A DNA stretch of 22,393 nucleotides from Promethearchaeota archaeon (lineage in GTDB: Archaea > Asgardarchaeota > Lokiarchaeia > Sigyniarchaeales > SOKP01), in NCBI GenBank assembly GCA_019058295.1, contig JAHPZI010000010.1, positions 101,578-123,970 on the forward strand. Reading direction: 5' to 3'. The position numbers were made by a program, and so were the translations under genes. Positions 15,969 to 22,393 of this stretch are shown one piece after another. Below the pieces are notes generated by a model that was not told where the DNA came from, made no database searches, and saw nothing but the letters and a program-made list of their open reading frames with translations. Positions within the stretch are counted from its first letter, which is position 1. Each line of letters starts with the position of its first letter.

Positions 15969-17534
15969 ATGAAAACATACGAAGAATATTATGAATCTCT
16001 TATAAAAATGAAGCCGAACATATACATTGGCAATGAAGTCGTTGGTAGAGATGACCCGCGAATAAAAGGGGGAATTCATATAGTTAGAGAGACATATGAT
16101 AAAGCTTGGGATCCCAAATTCGAAGATTTATGTACTGCAACTTCTCATATTACAGGTGAAAAAATCAATCGATATACGCATATCCATCAAACTATGGAAG
16201 ACCTTTTAAAGAAGCAGCGAATGACACGCGTTCTTTGTCACCGTGTTGGAGGATGTATACAGAGATGTATGGGAATCGATGCACTTAACGCTATTTCAGT
16301 AATAACTTATGAATGTGATCAAGCTTTAGGGACTAAATATTATGAGAACTTTATAAATTACTTGAAATATTTTCAAGAGAATGATCTTGCTGCGAGTTGC
16401 GCAAGTACAGACGCAAAAGGAGATAGATCAAAACGTCCGTCACAACAAGAAAATCCAGATGCTTATTTAAGAATAGTAGAAACTAGGGAAGATGGGATTA
16501 TAGTAAGAGGGGCAAAACAATGTATTACAAATACTCCTTATGTGCATGAAATAATCGCCGTTCCATGTAGATTACTTTTTCCAGAAGACAATGAATACGC
16601 AGTTGCTTTTGCAATACCTGCAGATTGGGAAGGTGTCAAACTACTCGTGAGACCTGCCTATTTTCATTTTCCAGATGAGAAAATAGTACCGCCAGAAATG
16701 TTACCAGAAACGATGAAATTAGGTGATTGTGAGACATTTATAATTTTCGATGATGTGTTTATTCCAAATGATAGAATTTTCCTAAATGGTCAAGCAGATC
16801 CTAGACAAACTCCCTATGCGGGATTTCTAGCTTTAATGTTTGCTCATTATCATCGTCATTCGTATACTGGATGTAAACCTGCAATGACCGAGGTTATAGC
16901 GAGTGCTTCTGCTTTAGTTGCAGAATATAATGGCATTCAGGATAAAACACATGTGAGAGATAAGCTTGCACACCTTATTGGCACTGCAGAGTTAGTTTTT
17001 GCAGCAGGAGAATCGAGTGCATTACATTCTGAGAAATCTCCTTCTGGTACAATGATACCTGATGAAATTTTAACTAACGCGGGTAGGAGACACGCAGGAG
17101 AGGAGATCTATAACGAATTTAAAACTCTTACTGATCTTGCTGGTGGACTGATGGCCACTTTACCTTTCTTAGAAACTTTCTTTAACGAAGAAGTGGGACC
17201 CCTTGCAATGAAATATATGCAAAGAAATCCACGAGTAAAAGTAGAAAATGTTTTAAAATGTTTTAAAGGAATAGAATGTCTTGGTTGTTCTGAAATCGCA
17301 GGATTACTACAAGTAGCTGGGCTTCATGGTGGAGGTTCTCCCCAGATGGAGACGATTGCTATGATGGGTCGTTATCCTCTTGAAAAATTAAAAAATATCG
17401 CAAAATATTTATTTGGAATAAAGAGCAAATTACATCCATATGAGAGATCAGAAACTCCAGTAACTCCTAGACAATTGCTTGAAAAGTTTAAAAAAGCTCT
17501 GATTGCGAAACAAAAACGAGAACAAAAAGAATAA
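15969..17534 (+). CDS. 4-hydroxybutyryl-CoA dehydratase / vinylacetyl-CoA isomerase (AbfD-like, HpaB fold)
   Basis: CIQRC and HRHSYTGCK carry the 3 Cys + His [4Fe-4S] ligand pattern; TDAKGDRS, VRGAK and HGGGSP are also present. Confidence 0.88.
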   Translation: MKTYEEYYESLIKMKPNIYIGNEVVGRDDPRIKGGIHIVRETYDKAWDPKFEDLCTATSHITGEKINRYTHIHQTMEDLLKKQRMTRVLCHRVGGCIQRCMGIDALNAISVITYECDQALGTKYYENFINYLKYFQENDLAASCASTDAKGDRSKRPSQQENPDAYLRIVETREDGIIVRGAKQCITNTPYVHEIIAVPCRLLFPEDNEYAVAFAIPADWEGVKLLVRPAYFHFPDEKIVPPEMLPETMKLGDCETFIIFDDVFIPNDRIFLNGQADPRQTPYAGFLALMFAHYHRHSYTGCKPAMTEVIASASALVAEYNGIQDKTHVRDKLAHLIGTAELVFAAGESSALHSEKSPSGTMIPDEILTNAGRRHAGEEIYNEFKTLTDLAGGLMATLPFLETFFNEEVGPLAMKYMQRNPRVKVENVLKCFKGIECLGCSEIAGLLQVAGLHGGGSPQMETIAMMGRYPLEKLKNIAKYLFGIKSKLHPYERSETPVTPRQLLEKFKKALIAKQKREQKE

Positions 17535-17566: not shown

Positions 17567-18526
17567 TTATAATAGGCATAAAACAAATGTTTGTTTTTCT
17601 GATAAAGAATTAATAGAAACTTCAGAACTTTGTTTTGAGATAAAATTATTTATTGGAACTCCTTTTTCAAATAGTTCGTTAAATTTTTCATTGAAAATTT
17701 GATAAATTTTTTCATTCCGAGTTATATACGATCCCATTAACTTGTTTGTAGGATCGAAACTTGGCTGAATTAGTTCTTCGTCCGTTAAACTAAAATTGCT
17801 AAAATCTTCTTCTATAATATGAACTTCAAGATTTTTTAATTCAAAATCAATAGGGTTAATATTTTCTGTTAAAACTTTAAATTCCTTACTTTTTAATAAA
17901 GAAATAATCAATTCATTATTAAAAACAACCTGTATCTTTAAATTCTTAAGGTTTTCTTTGATTTTATTCATACTTTTATTTAGATTTTCTTCGATTTCTT
18001 TTGACGCATTTGTTCTAATATAAGGAATTAATGGATTTTCATAGCGAATTCCTGTCGCAATTTTGCATTCACTCCGCGTTAAAAAAGGATAATATATATC
18101 ATCGATATTATTAATATCAAAGATAAGAAGTTCAACAGGCTCTTGAGTAACCTCTATAGATTTTAATTTGTATCTTTTAATGAACTCATCAAGAAAGGTT
18201 GTACACCGGTTTTTTTCATTTTCAAATTCGCTCCTTAAGTCTTCAATTCTTTTATTGATAAGTTTTTGCCAAATTGGGATGATCGGGTTAGCCAAATTAA
18301 TTTTCATAGGTCTATCATAAATTTGGACTAAGTCTAAATCGCTCAATACTGAACAGATCTTATAGCCTCTCTTTAAAGTAAGATTATATTGAAGAGAGAC
18401 TTCTCTCAAATTTTCGATTTTTTTATTTTCTAATAAATGATGATAAATTTTTTCAATTCCTTTTTCAATTATACCTAATGAATTAAATAAATTCGATAAT
18501 TGAATAAATTCATCTCGTATAGTCAT
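17567..18526 (-). CDS. Putative TrmB-like transcriptional regulator (divergent)
   Basis: The N-terminal LG...KIYHHLL...LREVS...GYKICSVLSDLDLV...RP..I...NP fits a TrmB wHTH, followed by a coiled coil. The C-terminal ...TD...NEKIYQIFNEKFNELFEKG resembles the end of a TrmB effector domain. Confidence 0.6.
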   Translation of the reverse strand: MTIRDEFIQLSNLFNSLGIIEKGIEKIYHHLLENKKIENLREVSLQYNLTLKRGYKICSVLSDLDLVQIYDRPMKINLANPIIPIWQKLINKRIEDLRSEFENEKNRCTTFLDEFIKRYKLKSIEVTQEPVELLIFDINNIDDIYYPFLTRSECKIATGIRYENPLIPYIRTNASKEIEENLNKSMNKIKENLKNLKIQVVFNNELIISLLKSKEFKVLTENINPIDFELKNLEVHIIEEDFSNFSLTDEELIQPSFDPTNKLMGSYITRNEKIYQIFNEKFNELFEKGVPINNFISKQSSEVSINSLSEKQTFVLCLL

Positions 18527-18527
18527 A

Positions 18528-19070
18528 TTATAAATTATTTATTTGTTCTTTCATGTTTTGAATAATAAATTCTGTTAGAATACTAAAAGCTTTATCAACA
18601 TTAACATTATTCATTGCTGAAATCTCAAGAAATTCAGCAAATTTATTTTTCTCAGCAATTTGAACTCCATGTTCAGTAGGAATTTGCCGTTGAGTTTCAG
18701 CTAGATCAAGTTTTGAGCCAATTATAATAAGGGGAATTTCCCCTCCTTTTTGCCTGACAATAGAACTCCATTCTTGTAAATTGTCTAAAGTAGAAGATCT
18801 CGTAATATCATATAACAAAAATGCTCCATTAGCACCAAGACAATATGTTGGTAAGAGAAATCTGAACCTTTCTTCCCCTCCCATGTCCCAAATCTGAAGC
18901 TTTATCTTTTTATCATTTATTTCGATTGTTTTTACGTGAAAATCGACTCCAATAGTCATTCTCTCGCTTGGATTGAATAAATTATAACAATAGCGTTTTG
19001 CGAATGAAGTTTTGCCCACATTCGCGTCCCCCAGCAGGAGAATCTTGAAAGTATAGTCGTAAGTTGTCAT
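18528..19070 (-). CDS. Rab-like small GTPase (Ras superfamily; eukaryotic signature protein)
   Basis: YDYTFKILLLGDANVGKTS (G1), TIGVDF (G2/RabF1), KLQIWDMGGEERF (RabF2/G3), GSKLD (G4) and EISA (G5). No C-terminal Cys motif. Confidence 0.95.
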   Translation of the reverse strand: MTTYDYTFKILLLGDANVGKTSFAKRYCYNLFNPSERMTIGVDFHVKTIEINDKKIKLQIWDMGGEERFRFLLPTYCLGANGAFLLYDITRSSTLDNLQEWSSIVRQKGGEIPLIIIGSKLDLAETQRQIPTEHGVQIAEKNKFAEFLEISAMNNVNVDKAFSILTEFIIQNMKEQINNL

Positions 19071-19093
19071 TATGATCTAATCATATGTTTGCA

Positions 19094-19130
19094 TTAATTG
19101 ATTATTATATTACAATACGAATTTTATAAT
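19094..19130. repeat. Left copy of the imperfect direct repeat flanking tbp
   Basis: TTAATTGATTATTATA-ttacaatac-GAATTTTATAAT. Confidence 0.75.
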
Positions 19131-19188
19131 ATATTTTTAAGTAATTAAATATTTTCTTGAAAATTTAAAAATAATAAATAGTAAAAAT

Positions 19189-19220
19189 AAAGAAATATAA
19201 AAGAAATATAAAAGAAATAT
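19189..19220. repeat. 3 x 11-bp tandem repeat AAAGAAATATA upstream of tbp
   Basis: Units start at 19189, 19200 and 19211; the last lacks its final A. Confidence 0.85.
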
Positions 19221-19239
19221 TCCTTTTTAAAGTAAGCCC

Positions 19240-19872
19240 ATGTCAGAAGAAAAAAATAAATTTGAAGAACACGATTTTGAAGGAGAATTAGATTATAAAA
19301 TCGAAAATGTCGTAGGAACGGTTATAATGGAGATCGAAGAAAAGATGGATCTTAATCAAATCGCTCGCAAATATGAATCAACAGAATATAATCCGGAAAG
19401 ATTTCCTGGTCTTATTATGAGAGTTTCTAATCCGAGAGCAACATTTCTTATCTTCTCTACGGGAAAAATGGTTGTCACGGGACTTAGAAAAGGGGAAGAG
19501 GCAGTTCAAGTAGTAGAAAAAGTAATGAAAAAAATTAAAAAAGCAGGAATTAAAGCGTCTAATCCAAAAATTACTATTCAGAATATTGTCGCAAGCGGAG
19601 ATTTACACACACATGTAGATTTAAATTTAGCAGCGATAGTAATGGAATATGCCATGTACGAGCCAGAAGTATTCCCAGGGCTAATTTATCGCATGCAAGA
19701 CCCAAAGACAGTTTTTTTAATATTTTCTACTGGAAGAATTGTCTGCACTGGAACTAAGAGTAAGGAAGTGGTAAGAGAAGCGGTTTTAAAATTGAATCAT
19801 GAAATACGAGAATTAGGAGTTGCTAGAGAAGATATGGCAGATTCCGATTATGAAGATGTTACATTTATTTAA
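19240..19872 (+). CDS. tbp: TATA-box-binding protein
   Basis: Two TBP repeats: YNPERFPGLIMR...LIFSTGKMVVTG and YEPEVFPGLIYR...LIFSTGRIVCTG; acidic termini. Confidence 0.98.
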   Translation: MSEEKNKFEEHDFEGELDYKIENVVGTVIMEIEEKMDLNQIARKYESTEYNPERFPGLIMRVSNPRATFLIFSTGKMVVTGLRKGEEAVQVVEKVMKKIKKAGIKASNPKITIQNIVASGDLHTHVDLNLAAIVMEYAMYEPEVFPGLIYRMQDPKTVFLIFSTGRIVCTGTKSKEVVREAVLKLNHEIRELGVAREDMADSDYEDVTFI

Positions 19873-19890
19873 ATTCTTTAGATTCTGACC

Positions 19891-19922
19891 TTAATTGATT
19901 ATTATAATATGAATTTTATAAT
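19891..19922. repeat. Right copy of the imperfect direct repeat flanking tbp
   Basis: TTAATTGATTATTATA-atat-GAATTTTATAAT. Confidence 0.75.
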
Positions 19923-19936
19923 CTAATCTTAATTAA

Positions 19937-20698
19937 TTAAATATTTTTAAATTTAATATTAAATTTATTATAAAGATTGTCCAAACATTCATCTTCCGAT
20001 AACTCTATTGAATATTCTTTACGATATCCTATATTTTGAGTGAACTTTATAAAATCTTTAGATTTATCTGTTATATCTTCTTCATCGTATTTTAAATCGG
20101 TTAATTTTATCAAGAAAATAAAATCTTTAATCTTTTTAAGTTGGTTATAATCTGAACCACTAATATACCTTGTATTAATTATATATCCTAAATTTTCTTG
20201 AGATTCAAAAGGTTCTAAAACTTCCATCGCATCGTTTAATGTTGGTATTGAGCCTAAAAATTCAAAACCTATATTGATATCTTCATCATATGCTTTTTTA
20301 GAGAGATCTGCAAGTCTTTTTATTGTTCTATTTATAATTCTCCCTTTTGGTATTAGGGTATCTTCAGATGAGAGTTCAAGTTTGGATGGATTAACAATTA
20401 TTAGATTTGATTCCAATTTATAGCATAAATTAAACATTTGCATTAAATTATTGAAAACTTTCGTTTTATAATCTTTTTCTGAACACAAGGAAAAATCTTT
20501 TAAATGAAATATGCTAAATACTCTAAGATTGTAAATTTCTAAAGTTTCTAAAATATCTTTTAATTTAAGATTTTTAGATAGACTTCTTTTAATCTTTTTA
20601 AAATTTAACTCTACGCCTTCAAAATCTCTGGAGAATTTTATAAATTTTAGTAAAGACAGATTTTTACAAGAATTTTGATTTAAAGCTAATTTAATCAT
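19937..20698 (-). CDS. Sugar-phosphate isomerase/epimerase-like (xylose isomerase/AP-endonuclease-2 TIM barrel), degenerate
   Basis: KLALN...FEGVEL...INIGFEFLG...NLGYIIN...IKLTD...IGYRKEYSIEL follows the family motif order. Confidence 0.65.
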   Translation of the reverse strand: MIKLALNQNSCKNLSLLKFIKFSRDFEGVELNFKKIKRSLSKNLKLKDILETLEIYNLRVFSIFHLKDFSLCSEKDYKTKVFNNLMQMFNLCYKLESNLIIVNPSKLELSSEDTLIPKGRIINRTIKRLADLSKKAYDEDINIGFEFLGSIPTLNDAMEVLEPFESQENLGYIINTRYISGSDYNQLKKIKDFIFLIKLTDLKYDEEDITDKSKDFIKFTQNIGYRKEYSIELSEDECLDNLYNKFNIKFKNI

Positions 20699-20869
20699 TG
20701 TAATAAGTTATATATTTTCTCAATATCCTCATAATTCTTTATTAATTTAAATTTTAATGGGAATTATAAAACCTTTAATAATATAGTTAAAAAATAGAAT
20801 TTTTCGATTTTTCGCAAGAAATGTTCAATAAACTAAAAAAACTAAATAAAATAAAGAAATTATTAAATT

Positions 20870-22393
20870 TTAGTCATTTTTTAATTCTTCAATTCTCCCT
20901 TCGGCTTCACTTAGCTTTTGATCAATAATTTTTCTTTTTTCGAGAAATTTTTCTCGTGAAATGGATCCAGTATAGAGTTTTTCTTCAAGTTGTTGTAGCT
21001 TTCCCTGCAGATCTTCTATATTCTTCTGGAATTTAATGATTTTCTCTTCTTTGGTGAGTTCTTTCATTGGAGGTTCCAAAGGAGATTTTTTTAATGGAGC
21101 AGAGATTTTTAGAGGTTTAGTATCTTTAGGTGCTTCCTCCTTTTGTTGAATTTCTTTTGGACTATCTGGAGCCCCTTTCTTTAGTTTTATTGGTTTTAGA
21201 TCTTCAGGTGCTTTCTTTGGAGTAATTTCTTTATCCATAGGTTCTTCATCGATTTTTTCTGGGTGTTCAATCCTAATATCAATACGTTTCTTCTTCTTTT
21301 TTCCTTCCTGCTTAGTTAATGAAATAGCAGAAGGTCTATCAGGGTCAATAGGGGTCTCACAAGACCAACAAATGTTTTCAGATTCTTTAAGCACTTCAAT
21401 GCACCGTGAACAATAATATGCGCCACACGAAGGGCAAATCCAGCTATATCCTTCTATTAATCCTTTATGAACTAAACAAACATGTTTTTCTTTGGAGAGT
21501 GTAATATCTCCTTCTGTGATCTCTTCTCTTTGGGCTATTAGATTCTCGAGTTCAGCTTCTCTTTCCCTAAGAGTTTTCCTTGATCTTCGACCAAAAATAA
21601 CACCTAAGATAGCTATAGTAGCAGCAATTCCAATAATTATTAATATTAACATAATATCAATTCCATCTTCCCCACCATCCCCAGTACTATCATCATCACC
21701 AGGAGCAGCAGGATAAATTTGAGCAATTGAGCTAGTTTGACCTTTTTCAATCCGAACTGAACTATTTCCGATATTACCTGCAGAATCTTTACAATAGAAA
21801 TTTAGTATGTAATTTCCATCTCCTAATCCAGACCATGCACTAGTGATTAAATTACCAACATTTTCTCCTTCGATGGCTGGAAATATTGTATAATTATTGA
21901 TGCCACCATCTAAAGTGTACCATGCACTATCAATATAATCTTCTACTATAGTTATATTATAGAAAGGATTCTCGTTTCCAAATAAATCGTTATTATTAGG
22001 TTTGTTTATTATAATTTTTGGACTAGTCAAATCTCCGGTAATATTTTCGGGTGTGGCATATCCGACATTCCCGGCTTTATCTGTTCCATTCACATAAACC
22101 CAATAGCTACCATTTCCATACAAAGATACGTCGAAAGAACCTGTCCATAGATCAGCCCCTTGATAGGTCAGTACTGGATAGATATAACCACTTGGTGTTG
22201 AAACATTAGCTAACAAACTCCCGGTAATGATTTCTGTAGTATTGTATGCTTGGATATTTGTAATGCCATTAGAGAATGATGGTGTGACTGTGAGAGTTAT
22301 TGTTGGGCTAGTCAAATCTCCGGTGATGCTTTCGGGTATAGCATATCCAACATTCCCGGCTCTATCTGTTCCATTCACATAAACCGTATAGGC
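20870..22393 (-). CDS. 5'-truncated single-pass surface protein: Ig-like repeats, TM helix, cytoplasmic RING-like Zn finger, coiled-coil/SHOCT-like tail
   Basis: The frame stays open to the window edge (AYTVYVNGTDRAGN...). It has repeated D-x-AGN beta-sandwich motifs, a TM helix IMLILIIIGIAATIAILGVIFG followed by RRSRK, and then 8 Cys/His ligands. Confidence 0.85.
   Translation of the reverse strand, partial: AYTVYVNGTDRAGNVGYAIPESITGDLTSPTITLTVTPSFSNGITNIQAYNTTEIITGSLLANVSTPSGYIYPVLTYQGADLWTGSFDVSLYGNGSYWVYVNGTDKAGNVGYATPENITGDLTSPKIIINKPNNNDLFGNENPFYNITIVEDYIDSAWYTLDGGINNYTIFPAIEGENVGNLITSAWSGLGDGNYILNFYCKDSAGNIGNSSVRIEKGQTSSIAQIYPAAPGDDDSTGDGGEDGIDIMLILIIIGIAATIAILGVIFGRRSRKTLREREAELENLIAQREEITEGDITLSKEKHVCLVHKGLIEGYSWICPSCGAYYCSRCIEVLKESENICWSCETPIDPDRPSAISLTKQEGKKKKKRIDIRIEHPEKIDEEPMDKEITPKKAPEDLKPIKLKKGAPDSPKEIQQKEEAPKDTKPLKISAPLKKSPLEPPMKELTKEEKIIKFQKNIEDLQGKLQQLEEKLYTGSISREKFLEKRKIIDQKLSEAEGRIEELKND
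22023..22393 (-). repeat. Intragenic domain duplication with 285-nt (95-aa) period
   Basis: CTAGTCAAATCTCCGGT...CTGTTCCATTCACATAAACC occurs starting at 22023 and again at 22308 with high nucleotide identity. Confidence 0.9.

Follow-up and report, generated by a model that had tools for sequence, protein, structure and literature searches.

The imperfect direct repeat that brackets tbp-a, a TATA-binding protein (TBP) gene, is in all likelihood a target-site duplication, formed when a paralogous tbp was inserted between older genes. The window analyzed here, a stretch of 22,393 nucleotides, is C10:101578-123970 of the source genome (G000), an assembly of 3.2 Mb in 30 contigs with 30.7% GC and 79% completeness. 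We compared this locus with four other filled alleles, two from the Promethearchaeota (Loki-type Asgard) assemblies AMARA_1S (G007) and TEKIR_6S (G005) and two from the metagenome contigs L136 and L137 (Ga0114925_10018198), and with an empty-site set composed of G006, G002, G008, G003 and more distant relatives. The features by which a target duplication is recognized occur together at this locus: direct repeats flank the insert, empty sites carry a single copy of the repeat, and filled and empty sites differ in length by the insert plus one repeat copy. The relatives are metagenome-assembled genomes, in which misassembly of any single contig is possible; misassembly of the tbp locus itself is unlikely, as the same structure recurs in five independent assemblies.

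A first-pass annotation of the window had placed two exact blocks in the same order on both sides of tbp, and both the 16-mer TTAATTGATTATTATA (19094-19109 and 19891-19906) and the 12-mer GAATTTTATAAT (19119-19130 and 19911-19922) are located exactly where it put them. Their expected counts, obtained from 100 dinucleotide shuffles of the window, are 0.03 and 0.08, respectively, and no shuffle contained two matches. Across the 3.2 Mb of the genome, the 16-mer is present at only two places, both at the tbp locus, which rules out a dispersed repeat family; the 12-mer occurs 16 times and by itself is not informative. These exact blocks are the best-preserved portions of a longer direct repeat, beyond what had been reported, with a length of 62 to ~90 nt (left, 19094-19183; right, 19891-~19975). 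A 48-nt block (19108-19155 versus 19900-19947) is 88% identical at a spacing of 792 nt, and a second block of 19 nt is 95% identical at a spacing of 797 nt; the two copies therefore differ by one 5-nt indel. Fainter similarity continues beyond the repeat core, out to ~19183 on the left and ~19975 on the right, so that the outer limits of the duplication probably fall within 19156-19183 and 19948-19975, stretches of weak similarity in very AT-rich DNA.

Intergenic DNA of this genome is ~80% AT, and the earlier annotation had allowed that the repeat might be expected by chance at such a composition. Local alignment of the left spacer with the right region gave a score of 102, whereas shuffles averaged 46 and reached 69 at most, and the best score in an AT-matched null (3556 real windows with an AT content of 80% or more, searched on both strands) was 86. 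Because the observed score is above that of every shuffle and every AT-rich window, the similarity is not a product of chance. A perfect 15-nt inverted repeat pairs 19287-19301, in the tbp coding sequence, with 19913-19927, in the right copy; it is not kept in G007, and we treated it as chance. An Rfam scan of 18900-20100 returned nothing meaningful; its top match, to a snoRNA model, scored 18 bits, short of the gathering score of 41.

The genes on either side of tbp-a belong to an older arrangement of three minus-strand genes. A Ras-family small GTPase (18528-19070; Pfam PF00071, E=5e-45), the neighbor whose upstream region was duplicated, is followed directly, with a 1-nt gap, by the conserved protein ORF319 (17567-18526), and the conserved protein ORF253 (19937-20698) ancestrally lay directly upstream of the GTPase. 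ORF253 and ORF319 have no significant Pfam match, the similarity of ORF319 to TrmB being non-significant (E=0.17). This co-directional trio, ORF253-GTPase-ORF319, is syntenic in many genomes, throughout the family and in parts of the order. The description of tbp as the only plus-strand gene in a run of minus-strand genes is accurate for 17567-22393 and fails just to the left, where an HpaB-like gene (15969-17534) is also on the plus strand.

An empty site of the kind that the first-pass annotation suggested looking for, with one repeat copy and without tbp, is present in G006, G002, G008 and G003. Between the stop of ORF253 and the start of ORF319 there are 623 nt in both G006 and G002, and 634-644 nt in G003 and G008, which leaves room for the GTPase alone, compared with 1411 nt in the window. 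The difference of 788 nt (1411 - 623) is close to the 792-797 nt that separate the repeat copies. In G006 and G002, a single copy of the element occupies the spacer between ORF253 and the GTPase, and this one copy aligns to the window twice, once on the left, where the match starts in the GTPase coding sequence and ends at ~19183, and separately on the right, from 19891 into ORF253. Both the left copy of the duplicated target (19094-19183, with a clear core at 19094-19155) and the right copy (19891-19975, with a clear core at 19891-19947), the latter from TTAATTG into ORF253, are thereby aligned to the same empty-site spacer. The ancestral states are split between them: the right copies retain ATAATCTTAA, and the left copies retain CTATTTATTAT together with the 5 nt that are missing on the right. 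The duplicated target, of at least 62 and probably ~90 nt, begins 24 nt ahead of the GTPase ATG, takes in the ORF253 stop and reaches into the last ~13 ORF253 codons. Accordingly, the left copy, a stretch of which matches the ORF253 tail of G006, combines the region upstream of the GTPase with an ORF253 3' end that is dead (relic stop, 19145-19147; relic codons, 19148-19183). In the right copy, the ORF253 3' end is live (stop, 19937-19939), and the GTPase-upstream region is in decay.

Both repeat copies are present in G007 and G005, which are collinear with the window (93-95% identity), and the two metagenome alleles are also filled, encoding TBPs that are 94% (L136) and 87% (L137) identical to that of the window. 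The 5-nt deletion is common to all five right copies, which indicates that the insertion of tbp was one old event, and we saw no empty allele within the filled clade (5/5 filled). The empty sites and the match in size thus bear out the earlier suggestion that the repeat is the scar of a tbp insertion. Its companion suggestion, that the repeat serves as a substrate for excision or amplification, is unsupported, given that every allele of the clade is filled and that the longest block identical between the copies is 16 nt.

The segment absent from the empty sites is ~707 nt long (19184-19890, plus strand; boundaries good to ~10 nt) and consists of the tbp coding sequence together with the 56 nt that precede it and 18 nt past the stop. 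Nucleotide homology to paralogous tbp loci of the accessory clade spans 19203-19877, with fainter similarity in the flank up to the TTAATT of the right junction. tbp-a itself (19240-19872, plus strand) encodes a 210-aa TBP with both repeats (Pfam PF00352, E=7.5e-56), and its reading frame is open and full length, remaining intact in all five alleles. Between the G000 and L136 alleles, 23 codon differences are synonymous and 13 non-synonymous; this predominance of synonymous differences indicates that tbp-a is under purifying selection.

In a phylogenetic tree, the TBPs of the genus form two clades, one with an acidic N-terminal tail and short branches, and the other made up of 210-aa accessory proteins (“type I”). 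The acidic-tail clade is represented in most genomes of the genus whose copies entered the tree and presumably corresponds to the housekeeping copy. The accessory clade has support values of 95/98, and the tbp of the window belongs to a subclade within it (100/99) that has a long stem. G007 has three full-length TBPs (a, b and housekeeping-type), 76-98% identical to that of the window, and one fragment. The expectation of an accessory TBP paralogue is thus supported, with tbp-a as a third, lineage-specific paralogue in a genus-specific accessory clade. A near-identical donor locus was not found, the nearest paralogue being 80% identical at the protein level; the inserted copy may therefore come from another strain and not from G000 itself. 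Flanking repeats were not seen at ten other tbp copies, whose flank scores are at most 28, compared with 79 at tbp-a.

The insert appears to have arrived with its own promoter. The tbp core promoter region (19189-19220, plus strand) contains an 11-nt unit, AAAGAAATATA, in tandem, and its last TATAAAA (19207-19213) is at -33 from the tbp ATG. tbp has GAAATATAAAA, ~33 nt before its ATG, in common with the upstream regions of type I paralogues, and a downstream CCTTAATT in common with their loci. Across the genome, TATA-like words are most frequent at -32 to -25 from the ATG, and a second class of genes has SD-like words at -16 to -9. A TATA at -33 is therefore in keeping with a leaderless promoter of tbp, which would have come with the gene. 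The AAAGAAATATA unit is present in ~1.5 copies in G007, 2.9 in G000 and 3.9 in G005, a variation that looks like slippage. We also considered whether ACGAA-TTTTATAAT in the left copy could be an upstream plus-strand promoter of tbp. This element is mutated in L136 and deleted in L137; since the -33 TATA is common to the paralogues and ACGAA-TTTTATAAT is not kept, a plus-strand tbp promoter in the left copy is unlikely.

Based on these comparisons, the following history can be proposed. In the ancestor, ORF253, the Ras GTPase and ORF319 would have been adjoining and co-directional, with a spacer of ~100 nt between ORF253 and the GTPase. A segment of ~707 nt, comprising a paralogous TBP gene and its own BRE/TATA core promoter, would have entered this spacer in opposite orientation in the common ancestor of G000, AMARA_1S, TEKIR_6S and the two metagenome alleles. 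Approximately 62-90 nt of the target, comprising the last ~13 codons and stop of ORF253 and the spacer to within 24 nt of the GTPase ATG, would have been duplicated in the process. Each neighbor could then retain the part that it needed, the left copy remaining upstream of the GTPase and the right copy supplying the end of ORF253, and the redundant halves, namely, the left copy's ORF253 tail and the right copy's GTPase-proximal box, are decaying. We infer that the event was a DNA-level capture, and the -33 TATA that the inserted tbp brought along favors an event of this kind over the copying of an mRNA. To judge from the end products, the capture could have occurred by template switching during replication, with re-entry into the target behind the departure point, or, alternatively, by the capture of a DNA fragment at a break whose long staggered ends were then filled in. 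At the right junction, TTAATT is common to the donor-type 3' flank and the target, and at the left junction microhomology amounts to at most 2-3 nt; in both cases the donor is represented by 80%-identical paralogues.

The two copies of the target have since had different fates. In an alignment of G000, G007 and G005, 6 of 90 columns are variable in the left copy and 10 of 46 in the non-coding part of the right copy, a difference of approximately threefold (Fisher p=0.02); for reference, 20 of 633 columns vary in the tbp coding sequence and 15 of 23 in the 23 nt adjoining the GTPase ATG. Given its strong conservation and its position just upstream of the GTPase, the left copy is likely the GTPase promoter region. 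Within it, the minus-strand GTPase-proximal box TATAATAA is invariant in all five alleles and is located at -39 from the GTPase ATG in the window, its counterpart in G006 being at -33 (genome peak, -32 to -25). The invariance of this box on the left and the position of its counterpart in G006 make TATAATAA the best candidate for the GTPase promoter.

The right copy could in principle have been retained for a function of its own, as an antisense promoter that starts transcription on the minus strand at ~19865-19890, runs back through tbp and so damps the expression of TBP-a. We consider this unlikely. It is true that the distal box TTATAAAA is present on the minus strand in all five right copies (on the left, this box is altered in L136 and deleted in L137), that the right copy of G000 has TATAATAA, and that the empty sites have the same boxes ahead of their GTPase, which makes promoter activity probable at the time of copying. 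However, the GTPase-proximal box of every right copy was cut by the shared 5-nt deletion, and what remains of it differs from allele to allele (TATAATAA, TATATTAA, TGTATTAA, TGTGTTAA and TGTAATAA). Such decay, in a copy about three times as variable as the left one with its invariant box, disfavors a conserved antisense promoter at this position, and the alleles as compared here do not support one; given the distal TTATAAAA retained in all five right copies, weak antisense initiation may still occur.

Further insertions of this kind are apparent elsewhere in G000. Among 2641 crude genes scanned for similarity between their flanks, 37 reached an alignment score of 60 or more (median, 22; 95th percentile, 32); tandem arrays account for many of these. 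Eight further candidates were compared with relatives, and four of these gave clean filled/empty pairs. C2:60254-62411, C7:6465-10264, C30:149923-150875 and C17:38006-39165 are complex or belong to multi-copy families and were excluded from the count.

The first of the four is a gene for a 276-aa membrane protein (C25:15746-16576), filled in G000 and G007 and flanked in G000 (C25:15634-16644; locus L216, 1501-2511) by a perfect repeat of 68 nt (100% identity); the empty sites on G002:C6 and G006:C3 have one copy. A GNAT acetyltransferase gene (C16:69787-70248), filled in G000 only, is flanked by a 43-nt repeat of 93% identity (G000:C16:69746-70360; locus L229, 1501-2115), and its site is empty on G007:C31 and G005:C100, where the flanks are 91-94% identical, and also on G002:C76. 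A gene for a 249-aa membrane protein (C19:22545-23294), again filled in G000 only and empty on G007:C115 and G005:C303, has a duplication of ~62 nt (G000:C19:22401-23415; locus L245, 1501-2515), which takes in the 3' end of a neighboring 511-aa gene, as is the case with tbp. The last is a U32 peptidase gene (C20:27873-29117) with a ~59-nt duplication, filled in G000 and G007 and empty on G006:C8 and G002:C72. In G000 it sits within a divergent promoter region (C20:27807-29225; locus L247, 1501-2919), with 8 nt between the duplicated promoter copy and the ATG, the result of a 96-nt deletion; G007 has 96 nt more. A gene 76% identical to this peptidase is found at another locus of G006. Neither the GNAT gene nor the gene for the 276-aa protein has a close homologue in the rest of the genus, so foreign genes, too, enter by this mode.

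These four insertions, with duplications of 43-68 nt, point to a recurrent insertion mode, one for which we found no earlier description and of which the tbp locus would be one instance. In all five cases the inserted gene is head-to-head with one neighbor, an orientation that may be due to chance with n=5. More tentatively, an undescribed, genus-wide process might insert one promoter-plus-ORF unit at a time into an intergenic spacer, in head-to-head orientation to a neighbor and with duplication of 43-90 nt of target. The length of the duplications, and their placement at promoter regions and gene ends, would then reflect a defined staggered cut or protein-covered DNA rather than random replication errors. 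We regard such a process as a possibility of rather low probability; if it is real, then the genus gains genes, including paralogues of basal transcription factors, by that route.

Long direct repeats raise the question of site-specific recombination. Direct repeats of 40-100 nt around integrated DNA are typical of archaeal integrase-mediated integration, and the two copies could on these grounds be the attachment sites of a small mobilizable cassette that a trans-acting recombinase integrates and excises, so that tbp could still be lost or amplified. The recurrence of the same layout at five different single genes in G000 would also be in keeping with this. Nevertheless, it appears very unlikely that tbp is such a cassette. 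The insert contains tbp only, with no transposase or integrase; it and the 16-mer occur at a single locus genome-wide; and its end-to-end alignment score of 17 (shuffle mean, 17.5) reveals no terminal inverted repeats. No recombinase was found among the neighboring genes scanned and no tRNA gene in the window. Moreover, the five duplicated sequences are mutually unrelated, each matching its own empty site, so that each insert would need an attachment sequence of its own. The filled state of every allele in the clade and the divergence of the copies (88% alike, with the 16-nt block as the longest identity) also speak against continued mobility.

Long target duplications of variable length can also be produced by target-primed reverse transcription, in which case the insert would be a copy of tbp mRNA. 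The sizes of the inserts are compatible with this: all five are roughly transcript-sized, each having had ~44-104 nt ahead of its ATG when it was inserted, with ends ranging from 5 nt inside the distal copy to ~59 nt past the stop, and the duplications vary from 43 to 90 nt. Genes for reverse transcriptases (PF00078) are present at G007:C114:4816-7129 and G005:C218:797-1471, but none was found in the G000 assembly. The -33 TATA fits a leaderless transcript that starts at the ATG, and an mRNA copy should therefore have been without it, yet the insert has it; we consider a reverse-transcribed origin extremely unlikely. Chance similarity of two AT-rich, TATA-like intergenic stretches, which the 16 occurrences of the 12-mer and the AT content of intergenic DNA might recommend, is practically impossible in view of the restriction of the 16-mer to this locus and the alignment scores, and is already refuted by the homology of both copies to one ancestral spacer.

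A target-site duplication of this kind has partial parallels among known systems. Mobile elements known from prokaryotes make short target duplications of fixed length (2-15 bp) and have terminal repeats and a transposase or Cas1. IS elements, casposons and CRISPR spacer integration resemble the tbp locus in that a direct repeat of the target flanks the insert and the empty site has one copy; they differ from it in that the duplications seen here are 43-90 nt long and variable, and enclose single ordinary genes without terminal inverted repeats or a recombinase. Template-switching rearrangements (FoSTeS/MMBIR) have been described in eukaryotes and bacteria. As at the tbp locus, they join DNA from another site to a local duplication and show microhomology at the junction (TTAATT on the right); unlike them, the left tbp junction has little microhomology, and the assignment is drawn from end products. 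A literature search for archaeal cases of long target duplications or of template switching returned nothing relevant, and a template-switch mechanism at this scale in archaea was not found in it. Aloposons, mobile DNA that, like the tbp insert, is found in Asgard archaea, integrate at tRNA genes and carry giant genes (PMC8813620); the insert is unrelated to them, as the window has neither a tRNA gene nor a giant gene.

Many archaea, haloarchaea most prominently, employ several TBP and TFB homologues (PMC7289017). Like the haloarchaeal TBP/TFB families, tbp-a is an extra basal factor copy beside a housekeeping copy, with lineage-specific copy number. In contrast to those families, its birth can be dated to within one Promethearchaeota genus, and the site and junctions are readable. 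The tbp locus is thus a dated, base-level record of the gain of an extra TATA-binding protein by an Asgard archaeon. One way to promoter specialization is through the number of copies of basal transcription factors, and such expansions are most interesting in the closest archaeal relatives of eukaryotes. Five independent single-gene insertions with long target duplications in one genome suggest a recurrent route of gene gain that is unexplained by known mobile elements. The comparison with empty sites also shows the head-to-head pairing of a TBP with a Ras-like GTPase to be a recent insertion accident and not an old functional coupling; since the pairing is lineage-specific, it provides no evidence of an old functional link.

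Other observations concern the TBP genes of single genomes. tbp-a is the sole TBP gene found in the G000 assembly (79% complete), from which the housekeeping-type tbp and its flanks are absent, probably because of an assembly gap. G000 has tbp-a without tbp-b. In G007, tbp-b is located with an M28 peptidase gene and a 100-aa ORF on a 2.6-kb segment of C138 (locus L060, 2758-5388) that is absent from G000, where the flanks of the missing segment are joined directly (C21:165923-165925). In L137 (2700-3980), tbp-a appears to have undergone a promoter swap, with ~210 nt of upstream sequence and the first codons matching the housekeeping-type tbp locus. This allele also has a shortened right repeat copy, followed by a plus-strand U32-peptidase gene in place of ORF253.
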